Assembly (NCBI GenBank): GCA_905178155.1
Contig: CAJINV010000002.1
Location: 12,595,621-12,659,620, forward strand
From: Amoebophrya sp. A120
Lineage: Eukaryota > Protista > Dinoflagellata
Length of the DNA: 64,000 nucleotides
Direction of reading: 5' to 3'
Made by a program: the position numbers and the translations under genes. Below, in pieces: positions 622-52,600 of this stretch. Under the pieces are notes generated by a model that saw only the letters and a list, made by a program, of their open reading frames with translations, made no database searches and was not told the origin of the DNA. The first letter of the stretch is position 1, and each line of letters begins with the position of its first letter.

Positions 622-3600
622 TCAATCCCAAGAGTCAAAGGAGAAAAACTCTAGTTCTTCGATCACGAACTCTTCCTGCGTCGACAGTGTCGTGGAATTG
701 AAAGTTGCGCAGTTCGGCGAGCTCGTGCCCCGCAAAAAGTCGGACTCGATCACAATGGCCGCTCGTCCCCCGCCACCCACCGCAAGCATGGTCTCGTCAG
801 AGTACTGGATGGAGGAGTTCGCCGCACTCCAGGGATACACGCGGAGAAACTTTTGCCCATTTTCCGCTCCCTTCTCCGCACTCGTCCGTACGGCGAACAC
901 GAAGCTTTCTCCGCTGCCGTAGTAGGTTCCCTTGCACTCCCAGCTTTGCGCCAGAAACGCGCCGAACCGCGCCCCAAACTGGTCCTTGACGAACAACACC
1001 GACGGGCCCTTGTCGTGCAAATTCCTGTGAAACGTCTGCAGCGACACGCCGTGCCTCGACGGGGAATAGGCCAACTGCCAGTTGCTGAAACGGACAGAGA
1101 GTGGCAGGAAAGCAACTAGTTCAGCGAACAAATCCTGGTCTTCGAGCGTCGCCGCCTCCCAGATCCGGCTGTTGGTCGGCGGCTTGGGCAGCGCGAGGAG
1201 ACTTTCTTCCTCCGTGTTCGAAGAGCCAGAGGAGGTCTGGAGACCGGTTGGCTGCGCGGCTGCACTCGTGGCGGTCGGAGCTTGACTCCCAACTGGCCGT
1301 CGATTTGCAGGGTTGATGGAACCCGTGCTGACGTTGTTGTGCTCAAATGCTTGCAGTTTCTCTGTCCCCGCGGTTTTGTCACTCCACAAGTTGTCATCTT
1401 CCTGCACCAATTTCCGCCGGTAGCTTCCCCCGATCCGTCCCTGCTCCTGCTGCTGCGCAAATGGAACTGCTGCAGCCGGATTCGTCGACGTGGCCCTGAC
1501 ATTCTTGTCGGCAACGCCAGAAGCCGCTGCCGCTAGTACGCCACCGCCACTTGTGTCCACCGTTGATCCAGGCTGTAGTACCTCCTCCTCTGCACTTCTA
1601 CCACCCGCACTACTAAATCGGTCTTCGCCGCCGCGGCGTCTCCGGTCCTGCGTTCCGCTACCACCGCTTCTGGCCGATGAGGACGCCGATCCGGAAGAGC
1701 CGGAATAAGACGACGACTGCTGCCCTCCTAACTTCACTGCGTGCTCGTCCGACGGCCCGAAAAAAGTTTCCCAGACCGATGAGATGAGCGATGGCGGCTC
1801 CGGCGGCAAGTAGTGTTCACGCAGTTCTTGCCCGCGTTGGTCGTAGTTTCTCGCCCTGTTTTGTTCCCGTCGTGGGGCTCTGGATGACGAGGAGCTCGCT
1901 GCATCCTTATGGATTGTAAAAATGTCTGGGTCTGGAAACTTGTGATGCTGGGTGGCGTCTCATGATGAGGCTACAAATGCTGGCTCAGCATGACAAGTTT
2001 CTGAGCACCTAGGTCTTGCCTATTCTGCATGACCAACTGCGCTCCTGCATCACAGAAAAACGGAGCTCTTGGGTATCGTGCATGACAGATTTAAGAGTCA
2101 TGCCAGACAAGCAAGACAAACGTGCTTTTTTTCCAGACCCAGACATTTTTACATTTGATAATCCTGTTCCTTCGACGACGTCCTGGAGGAAGCGCTCACC
2201 GGACCGCCAAAGAGCAGTCGCTTGCTCCGCTTCTTCTCTTTGTAGAGCTCGTTGACAGGAGGTTGTACTTGTGGCTCGACCGGCCTCGTCGCTCCGGTTC
2301 CGCGAGCACCGGTTTCCTGGAATTCCAGCTGCGCCAAGGGGGCACGAGAAGAACTCGAGCTAGTGTGCAGCTGCTCCTTGGCCCGTGGCGGGGCACCGTA
2401 GGTGTAGGTAGCAGAGGACGCTGCTTGCTTCTTGTCACTCCTGGCTCGCACGACCTTCCCCAGCCCCGCGCCGACAGACTTCGACAGAATCGACCCGAAA
2501 ACGCCCTGCTTTTGGCGGCTCTCCTCCGCTTTGCGCAGCCACTCGTCGCGCTCCGCCTGATCCTGATTCGCGGTTACCAAATCTTCAAGCGAATCGACGG
2601 AGCCGAAAGCCACGGTCGTCAGGGTCTTCTGCGGCTTCTGCCAGTCAAGCATGTTCTGATAGGTGTCGAGGAGGTCCAGACAGAAGCGGGTCAAATCATA
2701 CAACGTGTCGCGGGTGTCAACTTGAAACACCACAGATTTATGTGGGTCGCCGGTCAGCTCGCGACTCAAATTGCGCTGCTTCAACAGCACACTCTCATCG
2801 GCGCTGTTGTCCCGGGAAACTGGCGGTGGACTCGTGTTCGGTAATTCAAGCGGCGCGGTGGAGAGTAGGTTTTTGGGCTGTTCTTGGGAGTTTCGACCTT
2901 TGGTCTTGTCCTTGCCTCCTTTCTTGTTCTCACTATCCGAGCCCGAAGTAGAGCTTTCCGTGCTGGACCTCGTTGACTGGCGGATGAAATTCTCCAATCT
3001 CACGACCTGTTGCGGAAGCTGCTCCTCCTGTAGTTCCTTCGGAGTGCTAGAGCCGGTCGTCGTCGTGGCGGTTTTATTCATCAAGTTGCCTCTGCTACTG
3101 GCTCCGGAGTTGAAGTCCGTCTGTGTGATCGGCGAAGAGGGAAACAGCTGCTTTGAAGGCTGAGAATTATGCTGATAAAAACCACTTGTCACACTAACCG
3201 CAGCACCACCAAGTGACGTCGAGCTCGCGGCGCCTTTGCTGTGGCCGGAGGCCGACCGACTCAGCAAGGGGGAACCGGAAACGTTTCGCACCTCGCGCCG
3301 GCCGTCGAAGGTGCGCAGGTGCAGCTGCAGGTAGAACAGGTACTCGTTGCTGTTCACTCCTTCCTTTGGTAAACTGATGCTGCCGCACTGCAAAACATCG
3401 GAGAAGTCGATAAAAATTTGGAATTTCCCGATCCCCTGCGTCCGCACTAGTTCGAACCTCGGGTCTGGTTCGAAAGTGATGCAGCTGCCAGACACGGTCA
3501 AGCACCCCGGTATCGGCTCCAGTTCCTTCGGAATGAAAAGCGCAGAGCGTTTCAAGTAGCTCGTGACCACGTGGTCCTCGGCTGGTGGGGGGTCGGCCAA

Positions 3601-7394: not shown

Positions 7395-7543
7395 TATGAA
7401 CTGCAAAAGTATCGTACTCGTATAAATGCATTACAAATTTTCTCAGCATGAGAAATAAAATTTGTAATGCTGATTTGCCTTAAAAGAAAGATTTGTAATG
7501 CAAGACTTGCATTTATACGAATACAATGCTTTTGCACAGGATA
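7395..7543. mobile_element. Short TIR introner-like element, family F (149 bp), in 3' UTR
   Basis: Imperfect ~36-bp TIRs TATGAACTGCAAAAGTATCGTACTCGTATAAATGCA / TGCATTTATACGAATACAATGCTTTTGCACAGGATA; TSD GCACC at 7390-7394 and 7544-7548. Confidence 0.85.
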
Positions 7544-7548: not shown

Positions 7549-8318
7549 CTACAACCACCCGCGCTCGTAGTTTGTCCATTCCGGTGGAAAGTTTCTATCA
7601 AATGCAAAAGTGTCTGGGTCTGGAAGAATGCAACTTGTCATGCCAAATCTGAAGCATGCAAAAATCTGTGTTGCATGATTGCCAAAAGTCTCCCAGTTTT
7701 GACCAAGTCGGGAGGCAGTTTCTCATGCAGGATAGGCATGAGAAAGATCGTACAGAATCTGTCATGCTAGGTCCTGCATTCCAGACCTCATCGGTCATGC
7801 AAAAGCTGCATGATATGATAAGTCTCGAATTCTTCCAGACCCAGACATTTTTACATTTGATAGTTTCCTGGGTGGTGCCATTTCAAACACCAAAATCCAT
7901 AGTACAAGCTCGTAATCCAGAGACCCAGTAGGCCCCAACCTAGCGCGGAATCCGGTTCTGTGATTTGGTTTTCGTGATTTCGTACGTTAAGACTCGTTGC
8001 TGTGACTTTACAAATAAAAAACTTTCCTCGCATTTCGCTTCTTCTTCTGTCCCTGAACCAAAGAAGTCTGAAACCGACAAACATGACAAGAACCTAGTAC
8101 TTGAAACCATGCTTACTGATCATCCTCTGCCCGTTGCCAAATGAGGGGTGGTTCAAGCCCGAAGCGTCCAGATTTGCCACTTTGAAGTTGGTTACCTTCA
8201 TTGCGTTGTTCTTTGGAATCGTTGCGGGCACCACACCCCACGAGAAAGCCCGAAACTGGTGCTGCTGCTGAACACCCACAGCCCGCCCGAATCCACGTCG
8301 GGCGGCTAGGGATAACAT
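7549..8318 (-). CDS. Small (~115 aa) predicted mitochondrial single-pass membrane protein, 3 exons
   Basis: Presequence-like start MLSLAARRGFGRAVG; GT-AG intron 7958-8107; hydrophobic segment ALGWGLLGLWITSLYYGFWCL. Removing element 7596-7862 plus one TSD gives ...HHPGNFPPEWTNYERGWL*. Confidence 0.7.
7596..7862. mobile_element. TIR introner-like element, family A (267 bp)
   Basis: TATCAAATGCAAAAGTGTCTGGGTCTGGAA ... TTCCAGACCCAGACATTTTTACATTTGATA; TSD GTTTC; closely similar to 30120-30383. Confidence 0.92.
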
Positions 8319-8819: not shown

Positions 8820-11800
8820 TCAGACTGGGCTGTTCCTCTGGGACGACGAAAGCACGGGTGAATTCCCAGGCGACTTAACAATCGTGGTACTGCGTTTCAT
8901 CTCGATTTCCCGCAGTCGCTTCGCGTGCTCCCGGTGCTCGTCGCGGATGGCGTTCTTGTAGAACGCCGTGGTCTCCAAAGCAGACACTGCGACCGGGTGT
9001 CGCAGCACCACACGGCAGCCGAGACATCCCGCACCCGTCGGCATCTCCTCCTCGGGTTCGTCGTAGTCTGAGATCTTTTTTGTCATATCCGCAATGATCT
9101 CCCGGACCAGTTTATTCGTTGATTTCCGCGCAGCGACGTGACTGTGCGCGTGCCGCAGGTTCTTTAAACTGTTGTCCAGGTACTCCGTGAGGTACTTGTT
9201 CTCCTGCTCGTAGTTTAGTTGCTGCTCGAAGATCTTCTTACTTGCTTCTTTCTGGCCATTTTCTGCAGTTTCAGGGCCTTCCTGCTGGTCATGGAGATTT
9301 TCCGCATCATCTTCTGCCACGACGTCCTCGTCCAAGATATTAAGACCGTGCTGCTCTTCCGCTTTCGGGGTGGCCTCCTGGACAATCAGGTCGCGGAAGA
9401 AACACCCGTGCACCGACACGTAGTCGGCTGCCTTCACCTTGCTGGCCAGGTAGTTCTGCGCGAGCGAAAACACCAAGTTCGGCAGAGTGTCGACACAGCA
9501 ACAGTAGATGAAGCGGACGGGGTCGAATAAATGGACGAGGATCTCGGCGGACAGAGTGACAACCATCATATATCCTGAGTAAAAACGTACCCACGCCAGA
9601 GTTGTAATGCAGATTTGCAAAGACAGGAAGACTTGTAACGCGCATCCGCATGAGAGCCATTTCTAATCGTGTTTTGGGATTTGTGATGCTGTGAACAGGA
9701 TGAGCAGATGAATCTGTGATGCGGCTGCACTTGCTAACCTGCACTACACTGCAGAGTGCAACTTGTCACGCGTGACTCACAAAACTCCTAGGTTTGTGTT
9801 GCAAAATCCCCATCCTGACTCTGGTGTGGGTACGTTTTTACTCAGGATATCATATCCAGCGTCCGCAGCCGGAACTCGAAGCTGAGCACACGCTGCGTCC
9901 TCTGCAAGAGGAAAATGGAGCGCTGCGGGCTCAATTTCTCCATGGCCTCGATCGACGCGAGCGTGCCAGATCTTGACAATTTACTCGGCGACGAAGGGGA
10001 ATTTGGCAGGGTCGCCGGCATGAAATCGTCCTCCTCCGTTTTGTCCAAGGCTGTCATGGTGGACGCAGATTTTTTCTGCGGTACATCATCCCCGGAAACG
10101 GATAAATCGCCACCAAAAATAATGTACGCGAGCTTGATCCTGTGGAAAAACTGTCGGCGGATCACGCGCTTTTTGCTGAACAAACTCTCGTACTTCCCGC
10201 GGTAGTTCTCTGCAGTCGTCGTTTCGTCCATCAGAAAAGACAAATCCGCCCGCTTCGTCCGCTCCGCCCGCCCCTGCATGATCTGCTGCACGTTCAGCTT
10301 CCAGCTGGACAAGTCGACCGCGCCGGTGAGCACGCCCGCACTGGAAACCGCACGGTAGAACACCGATTTGTCGTTTTCAAAGACTACGGTGAACAGCCGG
10401 GAGTCCGCAATCAGTCGCGTCAGCATCTTCAGCGTGTCATCGATGACGACAGCAGTGGTGGGACCGGGCTGCATCCATTGAAGCACTAGTGGGCACTGCT
10501 TCACCGGGAGCTCTGTGATGATTTGTCGTTCTGCTTCAGGTACTAACTTTATGTATGCCAAGCAAGGAAGCAACCAGTACGCCCTTGGTGTCAAAAAATC
10601 ACATCAAATAGAAAACAAACAATGCACTACCTTGAAAAGAATGTATGTCCATGAGCGGCTTGCTGATTTTTCCCTCGACTACTCCGTAGGCGGTGCTGCC
10701 GCCCATAAAGAAATCCGACGTGGACACCGGCACCGAGCCGGTGGCGCGGGTCGCACCCAAAACGCGCTTGTCCACATTGGTGTTGTAGATCGCGTAGATG
10801 CCCACCTCCGTGTCCTCATCCTCCGCTTCGTGATTGCCGAACGCTGCTCCTGGATCGAAGGTCAGTTTCTGGTTGACCCCCTGGTATTCCTGCAGTCGTG
10901 CCTTTTCCCGAATCTGCTCGTACTCCACGCACACCCGGAGCAAGAGCCGCACGTTCGCCGCACTGTCCTGCACCTGCTTTTGCGTCATCTCGCGCAGATA
11001 CTCGATGGGCGAGCCCGCGGGCCGTCCGCCTTGCTTCCACGATTCCGTCGCGCCCATGAGGCCAAACGACGACTCCAACTCTGCTTCCTTTTGCCAATGC
11101 CGGCAAACCAGGTCCTCGTACTTCCGCTGCAGCAGTTCCGCGCGCTGCTCGAACAGCTTCGTTTGTCTCCCTTCGTCGTCAATCAGCTTGTTGCGCAAGT
11201 TCGGAACCACGACCTGCAACTCGCGGTTCGGAATCTGCGGCGGCGGCTTGGTGTCGCTGCCCGTGCTGTTGCCTCCGCCGGACGAACCCGAGTCCTTCCG
11301 CTTGATCTTCTTTCCCGGTTGAATCGGACTGGTGCCCAAGCCGGTCTTCAGGTCCTGCTCCAGTTTTTCCAGATTTACCTCGTGATCTTCAGCGAAATAC
11401 TCGTAGGTCTTGAGACTCTCCACCTTCGACCCCTGTTGCTTCTCCGGCGACACGGGGGACACGCGCGTGATGTTTTTGTGGTCTCCGGCGACGGCGGCAG
11501 AGGTGGCGTTATGGGAGGAAGAGGTAGCCGCGATGGCCTGTGCGGCGGTACCGACTTTTTCCTTCAAAAACGAATCGGACAGCAGGGGCTGATCGAAGTC
11601 GAAGTCCTCCATGAGCGAGGCTGTGAGAAGCGTCAGGCCGAGAGGCCGGAACACGTCAATGTTCAGGATCGCAACGGTCTTGCCGTCTAACGGTTCCACT
11701 CCTCGAGGCAATGTCGAGGAAGTGGACGAGGATCTCCCACCAATGCCTCCCTCGCCGTCACTGGACTCACCTCCTTCGCCATTGTCCGCAGACGCGAGGA

Positions 11801-31800: not shown

Positions 31801-34800
31801 CACGGTGGAAGACAAGTGCTTCTCCAAAAAGTTCAGGCACGCTTTATGACAGTGAAAAATGCCCTCACCCCCAACGTTTGTGATGCGAAGTTTCCAAATG
31901 AAATCTTTTTGTCATGCATGAAAGGAGTACGAATCTTTGTGATGCAGGGTCGAGGCGTATATCGCATCGCTTGCATGACAAGCGCCGCTCTTGCTGGAGT
32001 CTCTTGCAATACAGATTTTTGCTCTTCACGGTTGTGAATCTGTGATGCAGATAGATGCAAGATGGCGAATGTTTCATTTGCAAAGGTTTGCAATACAAAT
32101 GCTCCCAAGTTCGGGGGTGGGGGCACTTTTCATGGTAATACGCTTCCAGATCACTGTTGTTGTACTCGTACGGGATGCACCACCCGATGTATCGCGAGGA
32201 AAATTGCCCCCACCCCCAAAGTTGCAAAAATGTGTGATGCGAAGTTTCCAAATGAAAACTTTTTGTTATGCATGACAGGAGTATGAATCTTTCTGATGCA
32301 GAGTGTAGGTATGTTTCTGTTTTGTATCGCTTGCATGACAAACGCCGCTCTTGCTGGGATCTTTTGCAATACAAGTTTTTGCTATTCACGGTCGCCAATC
32401 TGTGATGCTGATAGATGCAAAAGGGCGAATGTTTCATGTGGAAAGGTTTGCAATGCAAATGCTTTCAAGTTCGGGGGTGGGGGCATTTTTCATTGTAATA
32501 CGATGGCGCCGAACTTCCGCCGTTCCTGCACGGTGGAGTGCAGGAAGGCCTGGACGAACGTGATAATGCGCCACTTTTCGTGGTCGATCTTGTCTAGCGT
32601 CTCCTGGGACATGATCGTCGTGTACGTGCGATACAGACCGGCTTTCAGACCCGCTGGGGGTTCTAGCGTCACCTTGATCGCCATCTGGAGCAAACCGATC
32701 GGGAAGGCTTTCGTGATCTCGCACGTGATCCAGAGCCGGAAGTCCTCGCTGATCTCGGGGGTTTTGCCCAAAATATCTTCCTGCTGAGACATGAAGCCGA
32801 TACCAAGATGGCAGTTCTGCAAAATCACCCACGAGCCGTTCAGGAAGCTGTTGCAGGAGAAGAAAAATTTGAATTTCGCTTTTTCATGCAATTTTTGAGA
32901 TGTTGCAGGTATAACATTTCACTTTATCATTTTTCTCTGCAAAAATCCTTACGCAAAAGCAAAACTAGGTTACCCGTTCTTCATCTTTTCCATGGCGACG
33001 ATCTCCTGTCCTTCACCCATGGACACTTTGTCGGTCGGGAACCTCTTCCGCTTCTTCGCCAATTCGTCGATGCTGCTCGTGGGGTCGCTGCCCGCAGTCA
33101 GCAAGTACAGGATCGGCTTGCGCGGACCGGACTCCTCAAAGATTTCCGACACCGGATCCGTGACCGGGTCGGTGAAGCGCGAACCCAGCTGCGCGTTGAT
33201 GAACTGCGCACAGGCGACGGACGTGCGGTCCTCCCGCACGCACCGCACCAGGGTCAGGCGGAGGAAGTACCCCAGGGTCCGCTCCATCACGATGCGCTCC
33301 TCGAAGTCAGGCACGGGGCAGGTTTCCGGCTCGTTCTCGTCGAACCACCGCTTCCACGCGGTCTCGTTGCGGGAAATCAGATCAACAATTTCGCGGAAAA
33401 ACAGCAAATTCTCCGTGCCGAACTGGTGCCTGGACAACTGCAGAATATTCAGCCAGATCTTGTCGCTCAACCACCGGAAGGGGTTCGGCCGTTCCGCCTT
33501 CACGTCGAGCGCGGACCCCGCTTTCAAGAAGACCGAGACGTCCGCACTGGTTAAGACGCCCGCAATCACCAGGATCTTCAGCGTCACCATCAGCTTGAAC
33601 GTCATTTTATCGCGCTCGAACAGGCCGCGGTTCATGTACCGGTAGACCTGGTAGGTGAGGTAGTCGATGATTTTCTCCACGCGTTTCGACGTTGGCTGCA
33701 CCTTCTCCGACCGCTGCACGGAAATGTCGAACTGCTCGAGAAACTGCATCAGACTGCAGTTGTACATCCACCCAGTCGGCTGCATGGTGATCGGGTTCGA
33801 AACCAGCGTCATGTCCGTCATCTGGAAGTACATAATGGACCCGCGTGTGGCCACTGGTCGGAACTGCTCGCGTTTTTCGTTGATCTCGACCTCCTTCTCA
33901 GCCGCGTCTTTCAGCTTCTGCGACACCTCTGTCGCTTTCGCCTTCGTGTTCGCGAGAACCGCAATCAGCTCCGTGTCGTCGAGGAGATTCCCCGTGGAAT
34001 TCGACAGCCGCTCGAGCAGCTGCGCATCGAGAAGTTGCAGCGCCTTCGTGTTGGACGTGACTTCCTCTTTCAAAGCGGATAGCGATTCCTCCAGCGATTT
34101 CTGTTCCATCGACAGCACGCGGCCAAGCAACTGCTGCTCCAACCCCTTCAGCGTGACCGTGAAGTCGATCACCGTACACTTCGCGGACAACTCCGGCGAG
34201 AAGTGAGGGTTGGGCAGACGGGAGGTCATGAACAGGTAGAAGTTCACGTTGTAGTCCATATTCTGGTCCGAAATGTTGATGTAGAAGTTCTTTTATCAAC
34301 TGCAAAAATGTCTGGTCTGGAAGAATGCGAGGTCTGTCATGCGTGTCTGGCATGACTGAAAAGTTTGTGATGCGTGTCCAAGATGAGACCCGTTTACTTT
34401 TCATGCACAAACCCACTTTGTCATGCGGAAAGCGCAATACTAAGCAGCGCGGATATTTCTCATGCTTGGCTGTGAATTACAGAGCATTCACTCTTCCCAA
34501 CCCAGCATTACAAGTTTCCAGACCCAGACACTTTTGCATTTCATATCTTTCCCTTCTTGATGATCGCGCGATCAAGCAGGGGGTCCAACATCGGGTCAAT
34601 GTCGTATCAAAGTGAAAAATGCCCCCACCCCCGAACTTGGAAGCATTTGTACTGCAAACCTTTCCAAATGAAGCATTCGCCCTCTTGCATCTATCAGCAT
34701 CACAGATTTCCCATCGTGAATAGCAAAAATTTGTATTGCAAAAGACCCCAGCAAGAGTGGCGCTTTTCATGCAAGCGATGCGATACACACCCAGACTCTG

Positions 34801-37800: not shown

Positions 37801-40800
37801 TGTTCCGGACAAATTCCATGGACTTCATCGGTTCGTACACCTTCGGCGCGGGGATCTCCTCCCCCGTCTCCGGGTCCTCCCCGCCGTCGCGCTGGAAGTC
37901 GGCCCACCACATGGCGCTGTCCATCACGCGGTCGCTCATGTCCTCGCCGAAGTGCTGCTGCATGTTCTCGCCGACGACTTTGTCCACGAAGTCCTTGTCC
38001 TGCTGCCGCGCCAGTTTGTCCGCAAAAACGCGCGTGGTCTCGTGCCGCCAGAGCGAACCGAGCTTCACCTCGTCCGCCCCGACCGCGGAAGAGGGCGTTT
38101 CCAGGATGCCCTGAAACACCCGGCTCAGCTCGCGCATGTTGAAGATGTAGTGGAAGCGGGCGGGCGTCGGCAGCAAGTTCTTCCCCACCGTCTTCCACAC
38201 GTCGATCGTGATCGCAGTCAGCTTCTTCGATACCTCGATCACCCGCTCCCCGAACCCGTTCTTCGGCGTGAAGCGGGCGCGCATGATGGACCCATAGATG
38301 TTATCGACGGACACGACCGACGGGAGCACCATGTTGAAAGAGAAGAACTTGGACTTCAGCCGATTCGGGATGTCGTTCCGTCCCCCGCCCGGGTGGCCCA
38401 TGGCGCCGATAAAGGAAAGGCTCTCCACGACCTTGAAGTCCCCCCGCTTGTCTTTGTCTAAGAAGTAGAACCCGCCGAACTCCATCAGCTGCCGCGACAG
38501 CTCGTTGGTCACCTGATCGCCCCACTTGTTCACGATCGGCATGGACAGATCATCCAAAAACAAAGTCATCTGCTTCCCGCCTGGGGGGCAGAACGTCTTT
38601 CCGGTCTTCCGCTCCACTTCCGCTTCCACGGTGCGCTGGAAGTTCAGGGGCGTGGTCGCGGAGGAGAAGTTGATCCGCTTCGACAGCATCGTGTCCATCG
38701 AGAACCTGGCACAGTACATCAGCGCAGTGCTGGTCTTCGCCGTACCGGCCGCACCCACCAAGAGGGTGGATTTGTACACGGTCGGCGTGCGGACCTTGTC
38801 GTAGTTGGCGATCACGTCGATCAGATATTCCGCTCGGGTGCTGTCCAGTGTCGGAATCAGCAAGGAGGAAAACACCAATTTCTTCGGGGCTTTCCACTGC
38901 TCCGTCTGCCACCGCACTTATCCAAACGAACTGCATAAATCAACCCCTAGTAGTACCACAACCGTCTCTAATGATCTGTCCCGGTAGATTCATACATGCT
39001 TGACTGCAAGTACAACAACTGCAATACCGAGAGTGATTGGCTTCGGTGACACATCAGACATCACAAGAAGAGTTTCTGTATACGACCCTCTCAAGCCACG
39101 TTCTAACGATGAAAAAAGCTGAAGAGAGAATGGTCGATAAGTGGAACTTGGCTGTGATGTAGTTTTGGGGTCAATTTCTCCTTTTGATAGCATCCATTGC
39201 TTGGTCTTGGTACTGGGATCCGGCACGTAGTCGAAGATATTTTCGCCGTTCTCGCAGGGCGGGACTGCGTCTAAATGCTTGTGCATCTTCAACACCTCCA
39301 ACATCTTTTCATAGAACTTCTGCCGCTCCTCCGGCTCGCACAACCCGGCGAAGCCCCAGCAGAGGGAAAAGAAAAAGATGCGACGGTACGCATCGGGGGC
39401 CAGAACCTCGTTGGACTGGCAGTGCGGATGCAACATCGCGGAGAGCAAGTTGAGCACGTTGGTAATGATAATCGCGTCGTTCGCCGGCATCACAGTGACC
39501 GTGTTCCGGGTCTGGTAATCGAACAAGTCGTTCACCGGCCCGGCGTTGGGCGGCGGGGTGGAGAGCCACTTATCGAACAAATCTTTCATGATGGTTGCCT
39601 CCTCGGTGCGGTTTTGCCCGAGCTCCACCCGTTTGGCCAACCAGGAATCTGCCACCGGACGCCACCCGAGGTCAGAGGCCGAGATGTAGATAATCCCCGC
39701 TCGGGAGACTGTCGCGGGCGAGGCGTTCCGCAAGTTCTCCACCTCGAACACAATGCGGCAGTTGTCGGTCATCGGAATGCGATCGTTGTTGGCCAAAGTG
39801 AGAATCTTGTTGTCGTCCAACACCGTGTTCAAGTTCTCGATCCAGATCGCGTCGACCGGCCCGTCGCAGACGATCCAGGTCGTGTACTTCAACGTTCGAT
39901 TGTTATACTTTTGCCAAATCGAGGCAAACACGCCGGGCGTCCACTCCTCGGAGATCGGATCCTTGATCCCGTACATCTGAGAATCCGTGATCGCCTTGGG
40001 GTTCATCACCTGCACTCGGTGCGCGTTGTTGTTTTCTGTGTGGCACGTCGTCAGAGTGGTCATAATCTCGGTTTTCCCGCACAAAGTCGGCCCCACAAGC
40101 ATGAACCCGTGGCGGACAAGCGAGGTTTCGTACAGCTGGACGATCTTCAGCATCCAGGGACCGAAAAGAGAAAGCTTTTTCCGCTTCACAATCTTCTGCG
40201 AGCCGGACTCCACTTCGGGATAGACCTTCTTCGGTGGCTCCTGCGTCTTCGGGAACAAATCCTTTAGCAGGGCCAAAAACAGCGGCACGTCATCCGCGAC
40301 GAGCTTGGACAAGTTCATATCGCGAGCGGTGCGCATAAACAACATTTCCTCGTCGGCGTCGGCCGGCTCGGATCGCTTCACGGTACCGGAGGTTCGCAGC
40401 ACGGAGAGAATGTTCCGCAAACCGAAATCGTAGTGGCGCTGCTTGGACAGCTGCTGCTCGCACAGCGCGTACAAGATGCAGAACTTCTTCCCCAGAATGT
40501 CCATCAAACTGTACCCCACGGAGGCCAGTTTCACTTTCATGATCGTCTCGCGGTTCGGCATCATCATGGAAACGGAGCGGAACAGCACTTTCAAGTTTTC
40601 CGGTAGTTCCTGGCGCCCGGCGTAACCCGGGTTCATGGTGATGAAGTAACCCACCGCGGGGACAAGTTTGATCGGCTCCCGTTCGCCCGGGAACATGAAG
40701 GACTTCACGTTCTGGCGCTTCGCCTGGGTGATGGACTCGACCTGCATCGCCACAACGGACAGCACTTCCAGTTCAATGCGGTTGAACTCGTCGAAGCAGC

Positions 40801-43800
40801 CCCAGAGGCCGGACATGCACAAGCCCTTGAAGATCTTCGCCATGTCGCGAAACCGGTGCTGGTCGCTGCAGTTGGTCACGACGACAAAGACACCCAGCGT
40901 TCGGCCCATATCCTTCACCGTCTCCGTCTTCCCGGTCCCCGCCGGGCCGGCCGGCGCGCCACCAAGGAACATCCCGAGCGCCTGCGACAAAGTCACGTAG
41001 CACCTGTCCGTCAGCGCGGTGATGCACAACCGCTCTTTGCAGCCCAGGTACTCGTAGCTGTAGGTGAAGTCCACGTCGGCGATCGAGATGCGCACGTGCT
41101 CCATGTCCGCCTTCCAGTACAGCCGGGTCTGTTTCAGCCACTCGAAGTCGTTCTCGTCCTTCACCTTGTGCTCCTTGACCTTCTTCCACACTTCCTGGTA
41201 CAAGTCCTTCTGGTGGACGTGCACGGTAACCAAGGTTTCGAACTTCGTGCGGTTCATCGTCGATCCCAGGTCCGTCAAGCAAATCCCGACCAGATCCTGC
41301 ATCATCTGGCAAAATTTCTTGTTCGTCGTGGCCATGATGGTTTTGTCCCGCTCCTTGCTCATCTTCATCAGCGCCTCCTGGAAGTCGAAGGTCCAGATCA
41401 CCTGGATCCCGAGCAAAGCCACCTGCGCGATGTAGCGGTCGGAGAAGTCCTTCACGGAGAGCCCCTGCAGAATGTTGCCGCAGTCCACACAGGCGATCTT
41501 GCACTCCTTGCGGACGGACCGCTGCATTTCCGCCTCCAAGGCGTTCAACCAGTCCTCGATGTTGCCCACACATATGGTCGGCTGCACCAGTTTCACGGTC
41601 TCCTCGGCCATGCCGGCGACGGACTTGATCTGGATGATCTTCTTCTTGTCCTTCGGGTCGAACGTGACCTTCGAGATCGAATCGAACAACTTCTCGAAGT
41701 CGTCCTGGATCTGCTCCGGGTCGGACCCTTGGGATAAAATTTTTAGCAGCGCCGGGTCACTCGTGAAGTAGAACCGCGGGAACTTGTTCCGCTTCCCCTC
41801 CAGGTACGACTCCAGCGACTTTTGGCACGCTTCCAGTCCTTGGGAGAGAACCGGCAGCATCTGCTTCAGCATGTCGTTCTGGCAGCACTGGACCACGTTC
41901 CTCAACTCCGCGGATTTACCCATGATCTTCACCCAGTCCTTGTCGATTTGCTGAAACTTCTTCGCCTCCATCGGCATCTGCTTCATGATATCTCCGGCAA
42001 GAAACACACTCTCCAAACTGGTCCACAGCTGCTGCACCTTGAACCACTTCTCGATCGTGTCCGCGGTGTCGGACAAAGTCGTCGTGATCGCACCGAGCTC
42101 CTCCTTGAACGGCATGGAGTGCCTGATATGAGTCACGTTATTTTTGGGAAAGTTTTTTTCATTTATGCCGACAGAAATTTTCGTGAGCTGATAAGGCCGG
42201 CGCCTAGTAGTTGTACAATCAAAAACACAAATAGCTTCACGCACTAAAGGAACAAAAAATTCAGAGCGAAGGCTCGGAACAAGTTGTACCTTTGCGCGTT
42301 CATGGTGTTCAGGGCCATGATGGTCTCTTCCAGCAGTTCCTGGATCTCCACCACTTTCCCGCCCGCCAAGCAACAGGGGTAGTCCCGCGCTTTCCAGGTG
42401 GAGAACTCGAAGCAGTATTCGCTCCACTGCTGGCTGATTTCCGCGAGCTTCCGCTCGATCACCAGCTGCTTGTCGGCGCTTTCGCAGATGTCGTTCACCT
42501 CATCGGCGTACTCGTTCAAATTCGCGTCAATCAAGCTCTGAAGTTTAAAATTCTCGCTGTCAATCGGAAGGTCCTTGCCAGTCAGGTCCATTACCTGCTT
42601 CCAGTGTCGCGACATGATGGATTTCTTGGACAGCTCCAAAAACAGCGGAAGAACTTCACTGAAATCATCAATCTGCTTCTTCAGCTCGTGGTATGCCTCC
42701 CAGTCGCGGAGAACCTGATGTCACGTGAGTGTGAAAAAGAAATTCGAAATACGATTCCCGCTTAACAAAATATCTCGCTGTTCCTATTTCGATGCCACGC
42801 ACGACACGGAAACAACTGCATTTCTCTTGTTCTACGCCACAACTCTCTACCTTCGGCATGCGCTTGCAACGGGCCTGAAACTTTTCCGTCGTCGCGCTCA
42901 TTTTTTCCATGTGCTCCGGCACATCCTGCCACAGGAGCTCCTTCCAGTCACGGATTGTGTCCAGCACAACCACGTACAAGTCGTACAGCTGCGACAGGTA
43001 CGCTAATTCCGACTCGGTCTTCTCGAGTTGCGGGTACTGTTGGTGCGGCAACCCGAACAGGTCCTCGCCCAACCGGTAGATCTGCCGCTTCCGGTTGCGA
43101 ATATCAAATTCCTCCTGGAACCGGCGCAGCCGCTCCACGGCCTTGGCCGGCGGGATGCCGCGCACCATGGGCCCGTTGCGCTCGTAGTGCTCCCGGAAGA
43201 CACGCACATCCTTCTTAAACGTGTTCACGGTCGTGATCAGCATACGCTTGTGCTCGGCCTGCTGCTTGGACAAGTGTTCCTGCCGGGACTCGCTGTCCTG
43301 GAGCAACTTGTCCCAGTTGTTACGGAGCATGGAGCGCTGGTCCTGCTCGTCCTTGTCAATCATGTTGGGCACGTACTGGTCCAAAATCTGGTACATGTGG
43401 GTGATCGGCCCGAACTCCAGCTCGATCTCGGACTGCTTCGCCCGCACCTCTTGCAGGGTCTGCATCACGTACCCCAGCGCGTCGATGTCACCCTCGGCGA
43501 CCTCACGGTGCAACCGCTTTGTCGTGTGCTTCACCATCTCGCCGACGGTGTCTAGCCTCACTCGCGCGTTATGGTGCAGTTTTCTCGCAAACGAGGTCTT
43601 CCACTTCTCGGCGAGCTCCCCCAGGTTCTGCATCAGGTTCTCCGTCTTCAGCGACAACGCCCCGATTTGCGTCGCCTTCTCCACACTATTGGCGTCTTCC
43701 GCGTGGCGGAGGAATTCCTTCAGCTTGCCCTCGAACTCCTGCAGCGACGGGCTGCCCTTCTGGAACTCGTCGTAGTCTTCCTCGACGTTCTTCGTCCACA

Positions 43801-46800
43801 GAGAGCTAAACCGCGCAAACTTCGCCACAAACTTGTCGCACTCCTTCCTCGCGCCGTTAACGCTCCCGGTGAGGAGAAGGATGACCTTCAAAATTTCCTT
43901 GTCCTGCGCGATGCGGTCGTAGTAGGTGCCCTGCACGCCGCTGCCCACCACCGGGGGCAGATTCGGATTGATCACCAGCTGCACATTCTTCGGGATGGTC
44001 ACCGTGTCCCACGCGTCGATCATCTTGCTGCACTTCAGCACGGCAACCGCGCCCTGGTTCACCGCGTTCTGGATGTCCGCCACGGACGGCTTCAGTCGCA
44101 CGCCGATGCTATCAAATGTAAAAATGTCCGGGTCTGGAAGATTGTGAGATTTGTCATGCATATTTCGGATCACGCAAATGGCGTCTGATGCAGGCAAAAG
44201 CATCACAGGTTTTGAGCACGTCTCATGATGCCTGTCCCGCATGAGAAACTTCCTACTTGCGTGCCAAGAAATGGACAGCTTTTGGCGCTCATGCAACACA
44301 AATATTTGTATGTTCCAGAGTTTGCATCACAAGTTCCAACCCTTCCAGACCCAGACATTTTTACTCTTGATAGATGCCGTCCAGTTGCAACTCAACCTCG
44401 AAAAACGGCGGCAGCAGGCTGTGCTTGCCGTAACCGCCGAGACTACCGCCTTGAGTATTTTGATAGCATTTTCACAAAATTAAGAATCAAATTTGAACCG
44501 CAAAGTTGTCAAAAGATGAAGCAACGAACACGAAGACTAAAGCATGAAAAACAGCACATAGCAAAAACTGCAATAAAAATATGCTTCTTACCATAATCAC
44601 CTCCGTCACTGTCCGGAGAGTCGGCTTTCCCCCCCGCTGGCGTGATGGGACTCTCGATTGTGGTCGGACCGGCAAGGGCCATCAATTTCGACGCGGCGTT
44701 TCCCGCTGCGGAAGACGCGTGGTCGGCGACCCGCGCGACCGCCAACCGCGTTTTGATCGCGGACAAGCTTCTTCGCGTCGCGTTCAAGATTGCCTGGTAC
44801 ATGGACCAGTTGTAGTGCGCCTTCACCTTGATGATCTCGGATTCGCTGACCCCCCGGACGTGCGGGTCGATCGGGAACCCGACAATCTGGCCCAGCAAAT
44901 CGTCCACCGAAGCCTCGATCTCGATGCTCTTCGCCATGAGATAGTGTGTCATTTCCCGCACGTGCCTTTCTTGCGACTCGATGAAGTCGTCGAGATGGAT
45001 GGCCTCGCCCTCCTCCGGCATCTGGACCAGCAAAATTCTCGCGACGTGCTTCAGATTCGCGTCCACGCGGTTTTCCATGATGTCGTTTGCGGTCAAAACG
45101 AGTTATCCTGAGTAAAAACGTCCCCACACCAGAGTCAAGATGGGGACTTCGCAACACAAACCTAGAAGTTTTGGCTGTTTCGCATGACAAGTTTGGACTC
45201 GTAGTGTAGTCCTGTTAGAGGTAGTGCATACGCATCACAAATCGACTATCTCGTCGCGATTCCACCATCACAAACCTTCAGACAGCATTAGAAAATGGCT
45301 CTCATGCGGCTGCGCATGAGAAACATTTTAGGCATGCCACTTTGCATGACAACTCTGGGGTGGGGACGTTTTTGCACATGATACAAGTTGCTCCAGCTTC
45401 TTCAGTTCCCGCCACACGTTCGCCAAGTACGACTCGATGTTCATACTGGTCCAAGTCAGCGTCACCATGCCGGGTCGTAGCTGGAATTCCAAGTTGTCCA
45501 AATGCGGCTTCAGCAAGTTCGATGCGATCGGGCGCACCATCTGGACCACGCGTCGGTACTCGCGCAGGATGAAAGACAACTCGTTGTAGTAGCCCTTGAA
45601 CTTCGATTCTTGCAGCAGAACCATCTTCGCGGACTCCGGGATCTCGATCCCCATGCGGTCGAGGCACTTCGTCTCGCGGATCAATTGCAGAATCTCCCAG
45701 TCGAAGTTGACGTGGAGCTTCCCGTCGTCCGGGTGCCGGACGATCAGCGTGGCCTGCAGCCCGGACTTCGCAACCTCGACCGAGTGCACCCAGGCCTGGT
45801 ACCACAGGGTTTCGAACTCGACCAACGTTTTCGCCATCTTGTTGTACATCCGGATGATCTTCTTCGCGTCCTTGCCCGCCAAAACGGACGGGTTCGTCTG
45901 AAATTTCTTCATCGGCTCCTCGATGCGCTTCAGCAAGTGCCGCGACCAGGTGATGTTACCCGCAACCGGCGGCAGGTTGCGCACCAGCGGCGGCGCGCCT
46001 TTGTTGTCTTCGTACGTGGTCTGCACTTGCGTCAGCTCCAGGCCGTAATTGTGGAAGATCACGGTAAACTTGGAGTCCAGGTCCGCACGCAGGGTCTCTC
46101 GCTGCAGAATCGATTGGAACTTCTTCAGCAGGTTCAGCGATGTCGTGATCGAGGTAATGGACTCGAAGGAGTGGTTGATAAACTGCTGCAGCGCGGCCTC
46201 CAGATCCGCAATTCGGACGTTGAACTCGACGTAGTCGCGGTCAAATTTGTTGTTGTGAAAATCGAGTAAGTTGTGATTTTTGTTCTTAAACTCCTCGAGG
46301 ATCGTCTTGAACGATTCTACCAGTTGGTCCATGCCGTCGAATTTGTAGGCCCCTAGGGACTGGAACTGGTAAATCGTGGAAAACATGTCGATCAACTTCA
46401 CCACCCTGCGGCAGAACAGCTGCAACCGGCCGAAAATCAGCGTCTCGGAGAAGTCGAACTGCTTGCCCTTCGGCAGCGTTGCCAGTTTGTCCTTCACGCG
46501 GCGGAACTCTTCCATGTAGGAAATTTCCATCCGCAAACAGCACTCGAGATTGCGAATCAGCGTGATCGGATCTTGGTCCCACAGCGCCTCGGGGCCGGTG
46601 TTCTGCTCGCCGGTCTCTGGGTCGACGCCCAGAATGCAGGTTTTGCAGTTCAGAATCATCTGGTTGGTCACCTTCGTCAGCAAGTTCGTCATCCGCTCCG
46701 TCGTGTTGTAGTAGCGCGCGATCGTGTGGATCATCTTGCAAGCATTCATCAACGCGGGGAGGCAGTCAATCACGTTGTTCGGTGTACCGGTGTAGAGAGG

Positions 46801-48074
46801 TTCCAAGAACTTTTCCAGCGTGGTCAGATACTTGACATTGTCCTTCGCTTCGTTGTAGGACTCCGTGATCTGAATATCGATCGCCTTCCAGCGACGCAAC
46901 GTGTTGAAAACCGGCTGCCGCGCTTTCGATTCGGCGTTCATGCGCGTGACAGCGTGCAGAACTCCGAACACGTTTTTGCACTCCCTAGATTTCAGATGCT
47001 CCGTGATAGAGGTAATTTGCTGCATGCGGTAGCGCCAATACTCAAGCTCGGACCTAGGGCCGAGCCCGTCGCCACTGCCGCTCGTCAGCGTCATACCGCC
47101 CGCGCTGCCCCCCGGATCGTCCGAATCGAGGGTTTCTTCGAGGTACCTTTGTTGTTCAATAAACAAACCCCACAGTAATTTTACGATTTAACTCAATTCA
47201 ACAGAGCTGCATGAAAAGAAGAGGCAGAAACACATCCCAATCCCTTCGAGGAAGATCTGCTACCGCAAGATGATAATGCCTGCATCGGCAAATACCGCTC
47301 GATCTGCCGGCACCACTCCTCCAGCACCTGCTCGAAGTGCGTGACAATGTCGGGGTGCTCCTTGACAATGTCGTGGTAGGTGGTAACCCGGGGATCGATC
47401 TGGTACTGCGGATCCAGCTTTTTCAGCTCAATCCCGCCCGACAGACTCTTGATCGCTTCGGTGAGCTCGGAGGTAAATTTTGTGAACGTCGACGAAAACT
47501 CCGCCCGGTGCTCCGCGTCCACGGCCCCGAAGACCTGCTTCAGCACCTTCTCCTTGTTTTGCTCCGCGCTCGCATTACTTCCCGGCTGCGCGGCAGCGTC
47601 GGCGCCCCCGTAGTCCATGTACTTCTTCACGCAGGGCAAAAAGATGTTCTTCAAACTCGTGTGCAGCGATTCTAGCGGTTGCGCAGCGATCTCCCCAAAG
47701 AGCAAGTCGCCATCGGTGCTGACATCCACCTTGATGGGCTTGTCCACCGCACCGGCACCCCGCAGAAAGTAGCAGGCTTTCGATTTCAGCCGCTCCGTCT
47801 CACCGTGGGACAGCAGCACGCGGGCCTCGCCGGGCCCGTCCACGTACTCCCCGGCCTCGTTCAGCATGTCTGGTTTCTGGAAGTAGAGGAACAGGTGCTG
47901 GCGCTTGGACTTACCTTCCAAAAATTCCGTCAGTTTCTTGAAGTTCTGGGGCTCCCGGAACGACTCCTCCATTTTCCGCACCTTTTCATCGTACGTTTTT
48001 GGCCCATTGTTCCCCTGAAAGATGGACAGCGCCGCTGTCTCGGCCATCCAACGATGCCGACTATGCAGCGACAT
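28852..48074 (-). CDS. Axonemal outer-arm dynein heavy chain (DNAH5/8, gamma-type), paralog 1; 7 GT-AG introns plus 14 TIR elements
   Basis: DHC N1/N2 tail, P1 GPAGTGKTETVKD, CFDEFNR, P2 GPTLCGKT, P3 GAAGTAKT, P4 GVGGSGKQS, C-terminal HWRLRGVCLL. Canonical introns at 29062-29215, 29443-29597, 32848-32973, 42123-42289, 42715-42850, 44450-44591, 47147-47295. Confidence 0.93.
29748..30069. mobile_element. TIR introner-like element, family C (322 bp)
   Basis: TATCAAAAGGAAAAACCCCCCCTCCCCA ... TGGGGAGGGGGGATTTTTCCTTTCAATA; TSD GGACG; related in reverse orientation to 51575-51898. Confidence 0.9.
30120..30383. mobile_element. TIR introner-like element, family A (264 bp)
   Basis: Family A TIRs; TSD GGAGT. 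Confidence 0.92.
30910..31191. mobile_element. TIR introner-like element, family B (282 bp)
   Basis: TATCCTGAGTAAAAACGTACCCAC ... GTGGGGATGTTTTTACTCGGAATA; TSD CCTCG. Confidence 0.9.
31247..31512. mobile_element. TIR introner-like element, family A (266 bp)
   Basis: Family A TIRs; TSD TCGTC; removal restores GGRITDDLDRELF as in paralog 2. Confidence 0.92.
31544..31746. mobile_element. TIR introner-like element, family D (203 bp)
   Basis: TATCGTACGAAAAAAGTGCTTCAC ... GTGAAACAGTTTTTTCGTTGCATA; TSD CACCT. Confidence 0.88.
31845..32140. mobile_element. TIR introner-like element, family E (296 bp)
   Basis: TATGACAGTGAAAAATGCCCTCACCCCC ... GGGGGTGGGGGCACTTTTCATGGTAATA; TSD CGCTT. Confidence 0.9.
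32190..32500. mobile_element. TIR introner-like element, family E (311 bp)
   Basis: TATCGCGAGGAAAATTGCCCCCACCCCC ... GGGGGTGGGGGCATTTTTCATTGTAATA; TSD CGATG. Confidence 0.9.
34294..34545. mobile_element. TIR introner-like element, family A ends (252 bp)
   Basis: TATCAACTGCAAAAATGTCTGGTCTGGAA ... TTCCAGACCCAGACACTTTTGCATTTCATA; TSD TCTTT. Confidence 0.9.
34605..34913. mobile_element. TIR introner-like element, family E, opposite orientation to 31845/32190 (309 bp)
   Basis: TATCAAAGTGAAAAATGCCCCCACCCCC ... GGGGGTGGGGGCATTTTTCACTGTAATA; TSD TGTCG. Confidence 0.9.
36783..37064. mobile_element. TIR introner-like element, family B (282 bp)
   Basis: TATCCTGTGTAAAAACATCCCCACCCCAGAGT ... GGGACGTTTTTACATGTGATA; TSD CTCCA/CTCTA (1 mismatch). 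Confidence 0.88.
37114..37377. mobile_element. TIR introner-like element, family A (264 bp)
   Basis: Family A TIRs; TSD CAGCC. Confidence 0.92.
38919..39189. mobile_element. Degenerate introner-like element / non-canonical intron (271 bp)
   Basis: Begins TAT, ends TTTCTCCTTTTGATA; TIR eroded; flanks GCACT/GCATC; removing 276 nt restores TKQWMRWQTEQWK, colinear with paralog 2. Confidence 0.7.
44110..44372. mobile_element. TIR introner-like element, family A (263 bp)
   Basis: Family A TIRs; TSD GATGC; removal restores ELQLDGIGVRLKP. Confidence 0.92.
45104..45383. mobile_element. TIR introner-like element, family B (280 bp)
   Basis: TATCCTGAGTAAAAACGTCCCCACACCAGAGT ... GGGGACGTTTTTGCACATGATA; TSD CGAGT/CAAGT (1 mismatch). 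Confidence 0.88.
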
Positions 48075-49677: not shown

Positions 49678-52600
49678 TTACTCGGTCTGCGCCAGCAGAC
49701 AGGTTCCACGCAGCTTCCAGTGCGAGGCGTGAATATCGGTCTTCAGGAGCAGGCGGAAGATGAGGTACCTGTCGTTGCGCTTGGGGTATTTGTAGACGGC
49801 GCAGTTGTAGGGCGTGACCGACCCGTACATACCCGCTAACGCCTTCTTTTCCTTGATCGTGACCGCGGTGAGGTAGATCACCGGCATGTTGGTGAACAGT
49901 TTCTTGGGCTCGGACTCGTCGATCTTACCCTCCTGTCGATTCCACCGGCTGCCCTCCATGAAGAGCCCGTGGAAGTGCTGCCCCTCCTCCGGCACGTCCT
50001 TGGCCTTCTCCGGGTCGTAGGTTTGCACCTCGGTGTGATTCATCACGTCATCCAATGCCCACTGATCCTTCTTGTGCTGACGGGTCACCTCTTGACGCAC
50101 ACCGGTCAGAAAACCTGTGTAAAATTATTTGTGAAAAAGTGATTCAAATTTGCAGATCGTCTCACGAAACAAAATGCATACGCCGAGGTTCTACAAACAT
50201 CATCGTCACGCTCGCCCTCGCGCCAGTACTCTTTCTGTTTCTGTGCAAGAAGTGAAATGAATGAAACGCATGATGATCATTTCAATTTACCTTGCGCGTT
50301 CGTGAACCCGGTCAACCAGTAGGATTTCATGAAGCCGCGGCCGTTCTCGAGCCAGTTGTAGAGGAGGCTGTGGCGCTCGACCAAGCCCGTGTACCAGGTA
50401 CCGATGGACGGCGACAACCACGAGATCTCCGCGCCAGACGGGTCGTGGGTCCACCGCCCCGGCACCTTGGCGTCGAACACGGAGTTCAGGTCCTGCAGCA
50501 GTTCCGGCGTCATCACCACGGTACCGTCGATGGCCATCACCAAGTTCTCCAGGTTGGAGCGCACGATGGCGATGATGTTCTGCAGTCGCTGCAACTCCTG
50601 GAACAAGAAGATGTTCAGCGGGGCCCCAAATCCCTTATCGGGCGTGTTCGGCGGTCCCTTCAGCTTCGCGATCTGCGCACGGAACACCTCCTCGACGAAG
50701 TCCGGCGGGCACTTGGCCTTGTAGTCGTTGGCGATGTCCTTCACGATCTCATCCATGGACTTGCCGGCGCCACCGCCGCTGTCCTTCGGCTGCGTCTCCA
50801 TGATCGACTGCAGCATCTCCGCGGCCTCCTTCAGCCGGTAGGTCAAATCGGCGTTGGTGTGCAGCCCGAAGATCATCGGGGAGTCCACCGGCGGCATGGT
50901 GTCGATGTAGTCGCGGTAGTCCTGGATTTCCAGTCCGGACGGCAGCTTGTAGTTGAACTCCGAGGCGTAGTTGTTAAACAAAAAGCCCGGCTTGAACATG
51001 TCCTCGTTCATCCACTTCTCCGTGTAGGTAACTGTGTTTTGGTGTCGCGGGAAGGATTTGCTCACTTCTACCAGATTTTTGCATTTTCATGTGTCGAACT
51101 CGTTCACATCATTCTAGTAGTTCCACTTCTGAAAATTAGGCTGAATAAAGAGCAGAAAAGCGGCACAACACATAGTCAAGAAGATCATAAAAAAAGATTC
51201 ATTACTGAACAGCTCGCGATCCAAGTCGTCCGTGATCCTGCCACCGTACTGCACCTCGGCGACCATGTACTGGATGGTAACCCAGGACAGTGGCTGTCCG
51301 ACTGTGATCGTGGTCGACAAGTGCTTTTCGAGGAACATCAGGCAGGCCTCCAGGTCACTGTTGTTGTACTCGTACGGGACGCACCAGCCGATCGGTCCGA
51401 ACTTGCGGCGCTCCTGCACCACGGAGTGCAGGAAGGACTGCACGAAGGTGATCTGCCGCCACTTCTCGTGGTCGATCTTTTCGAGCGCCTCCTGCGACAT
51501 GATGGTCGTGTAGGTACGGAACAAACCGGCCTTCAGACCCGCCGGCGGCTCGGCAGTGACCTTGATGGACATCTTATCAAAGTGAAAAAAGCTCCCACCC
51601 CACATCGGAAACGGAAGATGCGCGAATTTGTGATGCTGTATTTGAGTACACAAATCGACTTGTATTGCTAGAAGGCCAAGAGACGAAGCTGCGGCCTAAA
51701 TTGCAGGTAATCTGTCATGCTGTTTCCCACTTCCAGTTGCCTCCTGTCATCTTGGAGCTGCAAGGCTTTCCCACGCTAGGCAGCAGCACTACAGTCCGCA
51801 TCTTTTGTCTTCTAGCATCACAAAGCTGATTTGTGACCACAAATCTGCATCACAGATTTCCGTTTTGATATGGGGAGGGGGCATTTTTCATTGTAATACA
51901 TCTGCAGCAGCCCGATCGGGAACGCGCGGGTGATCTCGACGGTCAGCCACAGACGGAAGTCCTCGTGGATTTCCGGCGTCTTCGTCAAAATATCCTCCTG
52001 CTGGTTCATGAAACCGATACCCAAGTGGCAGTTTTGGAGGATCACCCACGAACCGATCAGAAACCTGTTTGAACGAAAGTGAAATAATCGATGTAAGTAT
52101 GATGTTGTAAGTGGCTCAGCATTTTCAAGTACTTATTTCACTGCACTCAAAGTCAAAGCAGCAGTGCTGCTTTCTTAACCATTCACAAAAAGACTATACC
52201 CGTTTTTCATCTTTTCCCAGGCGACGACCTCCTGACCTTCGCCCATGGACACCTTGTCGGTCGGGAACTTCTTCTTTTTCTTGGCCAGCTCATCGATCGA
52301 TGCGGACGGATCGGAACCCGTGGTCAGCAAGTACAACACCGGCTTTCGGCACGCGGACTCATCGAAGATGTCGCTCACCGGGTCGGTCACCGGAGCGGTG
52401 AACCGGGCACCCAGGTGTGCATTCACGAACTGCGCGCACGCAACCGTGGTACGATCCTCACGCATCGAGCGCACCAGAACCATGCGCATGATGGGCCCTG
52501 TGATAGTGAATATGAGCAGGTCTTTATTTTCGTTTTAAGTACTTACTGCAGCGCTGCAGCAACATGCCCGTTAAGTTTTCGATCAGTATCCTACTATGTT

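Follow-up and report, generated by a model that had tools for sequence, protein, structure and literature searches.

The window analysed here, a 64,000-nucleotide stretch of the genome of Amoebophrya sp. A120, contains 18 short TAT...ATA elements that are bounded by terminal inverted repeats (TIRs), flanked by 5-bp target site duplications (TSDs) and mostly situated within protein-coding sequence. They are the A120 introners of Farhat et al. 2021 (PMC7789003), so that class, organism and terminal motif are already known. What our analysis adds is a TSD of uniformly 5 bp, one copy of which is lost exactly, an unbiased orientation, flanks near background and bounds on the position of the cut. 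RNA-type contigs skip the elements together with GT-AG introns, a DNA-like run keeps them, orientation is unbiased, most strand-called copies cannot use GT-AG, and retention would break nearly all of their frames. Together these observations argue for removal at the RNA level, very probably guided by the paired ends. As to the machinery, we favour, with a probability of about one half, a relaxed, U1-independent spliceosome that is guided by these ends and removes from RNA what are copies of a transposon-like element kept in the DNA.

Scanning the window for TAT...ATA stretches with paired ends returned 20 pairs, namely the 18 elements (149-324 nt) and two cross-pairs, while the control of ten local shuffles gave 0-2 pairs per shuffle and one perfect-TSD pair overall. 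The TSD is perfect in 16 of the 18 elements and agrees at 4 of 5 positions in the other two (36783, 45104). An earlier reading of the window from its letters alone, the sequence-only reading, had counted 19 such elements with 5-bp TSDs; the class stands, the count does not, and a looser scan of the window gave no 19th element. Short, TIR-bounded, present in many copies and flanked by a TSD of fixed length, the elements are MITE-like, in the manner of miniature inverted-repeat transposable elements. An autonomous partner, that is, a long copy with a large open frame, was found neither in the window nor in 256 kb of loci from a related assembly, and no Rfam family was found within the window.

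Evidence for removal from transcripts comes from contigs of the runs X1-X4 (two samples of one study), compared with the region 29400-37700, which covers 11 elements; seven (1908, 7395, 7596, 9571, 44110, 45104 and 51575) lie outside this region. The full inventory is as follows.

1908..2160: family A element, TSD ATCCT, within a minus-strand gene with a TLDc domain
7395..7543: 149-nt element, TSD GCACC, flanks score non-coding
7596..7862: family A element, TSD GTTTC, flanks score non-coding
9571..9849: family B element in a minus-strand open reading frame (ORF) without Pfam match, TSD TCATA, AG end impossible
29748..30069: element of dynein paralog 1, skipped in X1-X4 along with 5 nt
30120..30383: family A element offering neither GT nor AG, joined form visible only as a loose end of 13 nt in X1 and X3 (one sample)
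30910..31191: family B element, could use GT-AG, skipped in X1 and X4 along with 5 nt
31247..31512: family A element, skipped in X1, X2 and X4 along with 5 nt
31544..31746: element of 203 nt, could use GT-AG, skipped in X1, X2 and X4 along with 5 nt
31845..32140: family C element, skipped in X1 and X2 along with 5 nt
32190..32500: family C element without canonical option, skipped with 5 nt in X1 and X2
34294..34545: family A element, skipped in X1 and X4 along with 5 nt
34605..34913: family C element, AG end impossible, skipped with 5 nt in X1 and X4
36783..37064: family B element with mismatched TSD, X1-X3 contigs retain the base of the upstream copy
37114..37377: family A element, could use GC-AG, skipped in X1 and X3 along with 5 nt
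44110..44372: family A element in dynein paralog 1, from scan and paralog comparison
45104..45383: family B element in dynein paralog 1 with mismatched (synonymous) TSD, from scan and paralog comparison
51575..51898: element in dynein paralog 2, from scan and paralog comparison

Ten of the 11 elements have a joint that skips exactly the element and 5 nt, the very loss that had been predicted for transcripts from the sequence; elements without a canonical option, such as 29748, 32190 and 34605, are among them. For the eleventh (30120) the loose end matches the next exon. Single contigs skip up to five successive elements plus a GT-AG intron, and two conventional introns are passed over as well:

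29443..29597, minus strand: conventional GT-AG intron, skipped in X1-X4
32848..32973, minus strand: conventional GT-AG intron, skipped in RNA-type contigs, retained in X5

The X1-X4 contigs therefore behave as mRNA. Contigs of a further run, X5, keep the intron at 32848 and cross seven exon-element junction sides unbroken at unique depth (about 43), and X5 thus behaves as DNA with the elements in place. The RNA-type runs also contain contigs that join element ends to other flanks, and a further joint inside 29748, with a 20-nt side, probably comes from another copy. Two raw RNA runs, X9 and X10, placed 5 and 3 reads on the window, all of them partial. The five X9 reads, at 31481-31515, carry a family-A arm joined to other flanks, X9 otherwise not matching the window; family A is present in retained form in X9 RNA.

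Most of the elements reside in a tandem pair of dynein heavy chain genes:

28852..48074, minus strand: paralog 1 of the dynein heavy chain, ends approximate and read from the sequence, host to 13 elements
49678..63899, minus strand: paralog 2 of the dynein heavy chain, ends approximate, may extend further at its 5' end, host to one element

Paralog 2 is 68-80% identical to paralog 1 over matched stretches. Along the pair (28852-63899) the elements number 13 against one and cluster in the 3' half of paralog 1, and seven elements of paralog 1 fall within 2.8 kb, some separated by exons of only 29-93 nt. Together with one element in the TLDc gene and one in an unnamed ORF, 16 of the 18 have a coding host, always on the minus strand, as are all long frames of the window with Pfam matches. 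The remaining two, 7395 and 7596, score non-coding in all six frames, and the earlier claim of 18 elements inside coding exons was therefore overstated. These two lie 47 nt apart in a stretch (7300-7990) scoring non-coding, which after removal of both elements holds a 50-codon minus-strand frame with a hydrophobic stretch that scores below the non-coding model.

The reading frames themselves favour exact removal. Element plus TSD is not divisible by 3 in 15 of 18 cases, in keeping with the earlier observation that most lengths are not multiples of three, and deletion of the element with 5 nt restores long ORFs in the window. For all 14 dynein elements, only +5 out of nine deletion lengths was both gap-free and best-scoring against the other paralog. 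This bears out the proposal that deleting the element and one TSD restores frame and colinearity, although the paralog that had been called intact carries an element itself (51575). The frames of paralog 1 extend over 13.6 kb without a stop. In simulations of neutral decay (300 runs per level), with the level estimated from two TSD mismatches in 65 positions, these frames stayed stop-free in 0 runs at 1.5%, 4 runs at 1% and 23 runs at 0.5%.

A larger sample was drawn from metagenome contigs by a single scan over 15 of 64 parts, which yielded 151 loci (L001-L151); it was seeded with a family-A arm, and family counts are therefore biased. All loci bear contig names of a single assembly project, which represents a close relative of A120 and not A120 itself: identity to A120 proteins is 95% for one exon and 92% for another. 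The loci contain 216 elements, 180 with perfect TSD, where the scan demanded at least 3 of 5 positions. Those with a confident strand call (117, frame margin above 5) were retained and the other 99 excluded; the strand model was correct for 160 of 167 held-out 240-nt windows, and L014_2308, which looks mis-stranded, was kept in the set. Combined with 16 copies from the window this gives 133 strand-called copies in nine families of 2-82 members. Retention of the element would shift or stop the frame in 132 of the 133, in many different genes. Within the related assembly, where the frames of the two flanks were called independently, +5 kept them continuous in 63 of the 70 cases that allowed the test. 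Some copies carry inner insertions of about 180-700 nt with intact ends (L025:1804-2260, L047:571-1051, L048:1805-2435, L075:1491-2462); L025 and L047, with insertions of 180-220 nt, still lie in strongly scoring frames.

Neither orientation nor predicted fold distinguishes the two strands. In the window the orientations are 3:3 for family A, 2:2 for B and 1:2 for C, and the three largest families among the 133 copies give 45:37, 7:5 and 4:6, i.e. no bias. The sequence-only reading had listed families A, B, C and E in both orientations; this is true of A, B and C, whereas the two members of E (29748, 51575) were not joined by our clustering. Family-A arms found without requiring TAT have it in 333 of 354 cases, and the position table of the arms shows TAT-S-R-A ends. 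One terminal substitution occurs in 9 of 144 paired copies, of which about five still lie in frames that the model scores best under +5; TAT may therefore not be strictly required. The ends are predicted to form a terminal stem of 25-30 bp, equally on either strand, with mean pairing probabilities of 0.94-0.96 at stem positions 11-13. Predicted folds have z scores of -6.7 and -8.2, and the sense fold is the more stable one in 31 of 60 copies.

Which splice sites could the junctions offer? When the boundary is slid through the TSD and read on the minus strand, the options listed in the sequence-only reading recur: GT-AG for 7395, 30910 and 31544 (for 7395 only if read on the minus strand, where no gene is shown), GC-AG for 37114 and GA-AG for 1908, with no AG end for 9571, 30120 and 34605, though 34605 permits AT-AC. 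The elements without GT/GC/GA-AG number 13, one fewer than claimed. Among the 133 copies, 11 could use GT-AG, 3 GC-AG and 23 any of GT/GC/GA-AG, while 110 have none of these. The 11 GT-AG options on the sense strand compare with 5.6 expected from phase-matched (uncorrected p=0.026) or 4.7 from unphased background (uncorrected p=0.008), and those on the antisense strand are 3 against 5.0; AT-AC is possible in 9 against 5.8 expected. With a 1-nt offset, i.e. a cut 1 nt before TAT, AG ends occur 17 times against 8.8 expected and T-ending introns 13 times against 25 on an unphased background, an excess absent on the antisense strand. As a whole, flanking dinucleotides are near random. As a group, the elements lack both the GT/GC...AG ends of U2 introns and the AT-AC ends with U11/U12 signals of U12 introns; the minor small nuclear RNAs (snRNAs) are reported absent (PMC7789003). 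By comparison, all eight clear conventional donors in the window begin GTA, a count from 12 picks of which four unclear ones were omitted; RNA joints overruled the boundaries of two more.

The position of a cut is hidden by the TSD unless its two copies differ. In 36783 the contigs retain the upstream base at TSD position 2, so that the intron can include no more than 3 TSD bases ahead of TAT. Homologues were compared for three of ten non-synonymous TSD mismatches (L071, L040, L149). Two of them, L071, for which the A120 ortholog has N, and L040, for which P0125 has E, favour the upstream copy at TSD position 3, which would put the cut at most 2 nt before TAT. L030 (TSD position 1) was uninformative, its alignments starting past the site. 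Overall, the 5' cut is placed 0-2 nt before TAT, an offset of 1 or 2 being the likeliest. Of the 133 copies, 27, 40 and 66 have their first TSD base on codon positions 1, 2 and 3 respectively (p=1.4e-4), a phase bias that a target-site matrix from unframed copies does not predict; a 1-nt offset makes phase 0 commonest (66 of 133), a 2-nt offset phase 2. Among 26 mismatched TSD positions in 22 elements, 16 are synonymous and 16 lie at third codon positions. This exceeds the expectation for one always-free copy and could reflect a floating cut or GC-rich, mutable third positions. Polarising the mismatches by AT/GC direction was dropped, as it disagreed with the A120 ortholog checks at L149 and L071.

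In the mechanism that we favour, the predicted end-to-end hairpin would bring the two exons together, and a relaxed, U1-independent spliceosome would carry out the removal, cutting at a fixed short distance from the stem that we infer to be 0-2 nt before TAT. At a 1-nt offset every intron starts N-T-A-T, and this donor would share +2 T and +3 A with the GTA donors of the host while lacking their +1 G. Distance from the stem would fix the 3' end, AG attracting it only weakly. One TSD would always be removed, any insertion would restore the original mRNA, and this would explain the spread of the elements through exons. A spliceosome is favoured because of the sense-only GT-AG excess, the N-T-A start, the precedent of Fritillaria and the U1 snRNA, which was not detected in A25 or A120 (PMC7789003) but is present in strain Kv, whose introns are canonical (PMC12005148). 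The sequence-only reading had seen the removal signal in the symmetric TIR pair and not in strand-specific sites. Orientation independence and the dispensability of GT and AG in most copies support this; since GT-AG and AG ends show a weak sense-only excess, the claim that the pair alone matters is slightly too strong.

Several observations weigh against a spliceosome. GT-AG is impossible in any register for 122 of the 133 copies and an AG end is unavailable in 61, a lack of options that is hard to reconcile with standard spliceosome chemistry. No strand-specific branch or pyrimidine signal was seen, the arms being symmetric, and in transcript sense G-U wobbles are not preferred over A-C (112 vs 103), thus giving no sign of selection on an RNA stem specifically. 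The biases are weak, and their uncorrected p-values come from dozens of cells tested; with phase matching, the AG ends at the 1-nt offset are 17 against 10.5, a weaker excess, and at the 2-nt offset GT-AG drops to 0 of 133 and the N-T-A argument fails. The third homologue comparison, L149, where the ortholog has K (a K/R difference), favours the downstream copy at TSD position 4 and therefore a cut at least 2 nt before TAT. For a fixed register, the three ortholog points give the 2-nt offset 0.49-0.81 at assumed reliabilities of 0.7-0.9. The biases in sequence, in contrast, speak for the 1-nt offset. Moreover, X1-X4 were typed as RNA by guess only and consist of contigs, not reads, and the xT-yy types in Table S4 of PMC7789003 may reflect aligner choice. 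The 2-nt offset leads to the most serious alternative, which we hold to be possible but tentative: a spliceosome-independent nuclease and ligase, or a euglenid-like machine, that would cut 2 nt before TAT and 3 nt after ATA, leave the flanks unread and release a circle or linear RNA. Only this register fits the RNA point at 36783 and all three ortholog points; it yields 97 different end pairs among the 133 copies, none GT-AG, and it suits the symmetry of orientation and arms. Euglenid introns provide precedents for fixed spacers from a paired motif (PMC12501133) and for circular release (review PMC11282704). However, the sense-only GT-AG excess and the AG bias would be left unexplained, unless canonical splicing acts as a back-up; in addition, the offset depends on one conservative K/R site and would make phase 2 the most frequent. 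That Amoebophrya possesses a fully sequence-blind cut-and-join system, measuring 2 and 3 nt from the hairpin base and erasing any insertion from mRNA, is a little less probable still and on balance unlikely.

The other explanations fare worse. Excision from DNA at some life stage, as for the internal eliminated sequences (IESs) of ciliates, with transcripts made from element-free templates, was an option in the sequence-only reading. It would agree with the symmetry, with the absent G-U preference on the RNA strand and with the exact loss of one direct repeat. Yet X5 contigs pass from exon into element at seven junction sides at unique depth, and RNA-type runs hold contigs with element ends joined to other flanks. 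X5 is one DNA-like run, perhaps the source of the window, with kind and life stage not on record, contigs drop rare variants, and the joints are those among the matches listed; we regard excision from DNA as improbable and, with X5 keeping the elements, as unsupported. Direct repeats combined with a hairpin are the geometry of reverse-transcriptase (RT) jump artefacts. If the joints were such 'falsitrons', the elements would stay in RNA and paralog 1 would be dead. Such artefacts are documented (PMC8240250), and the RNA evidence here consists of assembled contigs from runs of guessed type. Against this, paralog 1 has kept stop-free frames that simulated decay rarely leaves, retention would damage frames across many genes, and single contigs lose several elements in succession together with a GT-AG intron, which makes RT jumps, if anything, slightly more improbable than DNA excision. 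Ordinary splicing at cryptic GT-AG sites outside the TSDs has next to no credibility: the 11 copies with GT-AG inside the TSD are perhaps normally spliced, but all 10 listed joints lie inside the TSD and remove the element plus 5 nt, and in each of the 14 paralog comparisons +5 alone left no gap. For the junctions seen, this explanation is already contradicted.

Elsewhere in the window, the co-oriented genes within 625-27256 (minus strand) encode the TLDc protein, sideroflexin (5670-6581) and NMD3 (13666-15794), of which an NMD3 exon is 100% identical to the Amoebophrya sp. A120 protein and 85% to that of A25, an identity that marks the host as Amoebophrya. The same interval includes long ORFs without Pfam match, e.g. 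17271-22082, and a frame of 1,564 codons (22565-27256, minus strand) that carries a C-5 cytosine DNA methylase domain. A 29-nt tandem duplication lies in intergenic DNA at 6936-6993.

How do these results relate to what has been published? The orientation test, the one-TSD rule and the cut position for Amoebophrya were not found in the searched literature, PMC11453091 included, although figures S19-S25 and paywalled papers may contain them. A literature search whose coverage excludes most subscription papers found none resolving the removal mechanism in Amoebophrya, and PMC13326754 does not mention the genus. The finding is no surprise to the specialist, yet it makes the mechanism directly testable: the window and the 117 related copies lay out one-TSD loss, no dependence on orientation and a cut 1 or 2 nt ahead of TAT. 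Each offset suggests a machine of its own, a relaxed spliceosome for 1 nt and a hairpin-measuring nuclease with ligase for 2 nt, and mismatched TSDs in existing RNA-seq can separate them genome-wide. Either machine would explain a near-harmless exon transposon and could yield a portable, sequence-independent intron.

Ciliate IESs are likewise transposon-derived inserts in exons whose precise loss leaves one repeat copy, but they are removed from somatic DNA. Unlike them, the elements described here are kept in the DNA-like contigs of X5. The elements are the introners reported for A120, whose repeats start with TAT, seven variable nucleotides and at least three A, with direct repeats of 3-5 nt at the boundaries; they are RNA-supported and about 240-260 nt long, and their mechanism was left open (PMC7789003). 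Our elements share the TAT + 7 nt + A-run ends, direct repeats, repeated families, transcript removal and the Amoebophrya host. More than 60% of the introns of this parasite are removed without GT-AG, and how is described as an open question (PMC7789003), as the sequence-only reading had also said of the class. In A25 the repeats start with TTA and two purines, and the main non-canonical types are TT-xx (PMC7789003, Table S4). Gozashti et al. 2025 (PMC12130899) describe a variety of TIR introners in A120, of which one has an integrase-like ORF; that this introner is linked to the 5-bp TSD seen here is a guess.

The nonconventional introns of euglenids and diplonemids share paired ends, a MITE-like origin, TSD-like repeats, the lack of GT-AG and an unknown machinery (PMC12501133, PMC12621601, PMC11282704). 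Euglena, however, needs 5'-N3CDG...CH'GN5-6|R, while the elements here have TAT/ATA ends and a predicted stem of 25-30 bp; base-paired ends are present in the predicted folds, and CDG/CH'G at fixed spacers is absent from the arm table by inspection. Circular release is reported for euglenid introns, whereas our elements are known from contigs only. The introners of Polarella, Symbiodinium and Aureococcus resemble them in combining TIR and TSD, in creating introns that leave mRNA length unchanged and, in some cases, in occurring in both orientations and several registers (bioRxiv 10.1101/2020.10.14.339549; PMC9860276). Those introners carry or recruit GT/GC/GA and AG, an option that most copies here lack, and insertion in both orientations alone is known for the Polarella and Aureococcus introners that recruit splice sites (bioRxiv 10.1101/2020.10.14.339549). 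The introns of Fritillaria borealis, finally, are MITE-derived, with TIR, TSD and non-canonical ends, and are attributed to an adapted U2 spliceosome; there AG-AC and AG-AT ends dominate, whereas here no end pair does (review PMC11282704).

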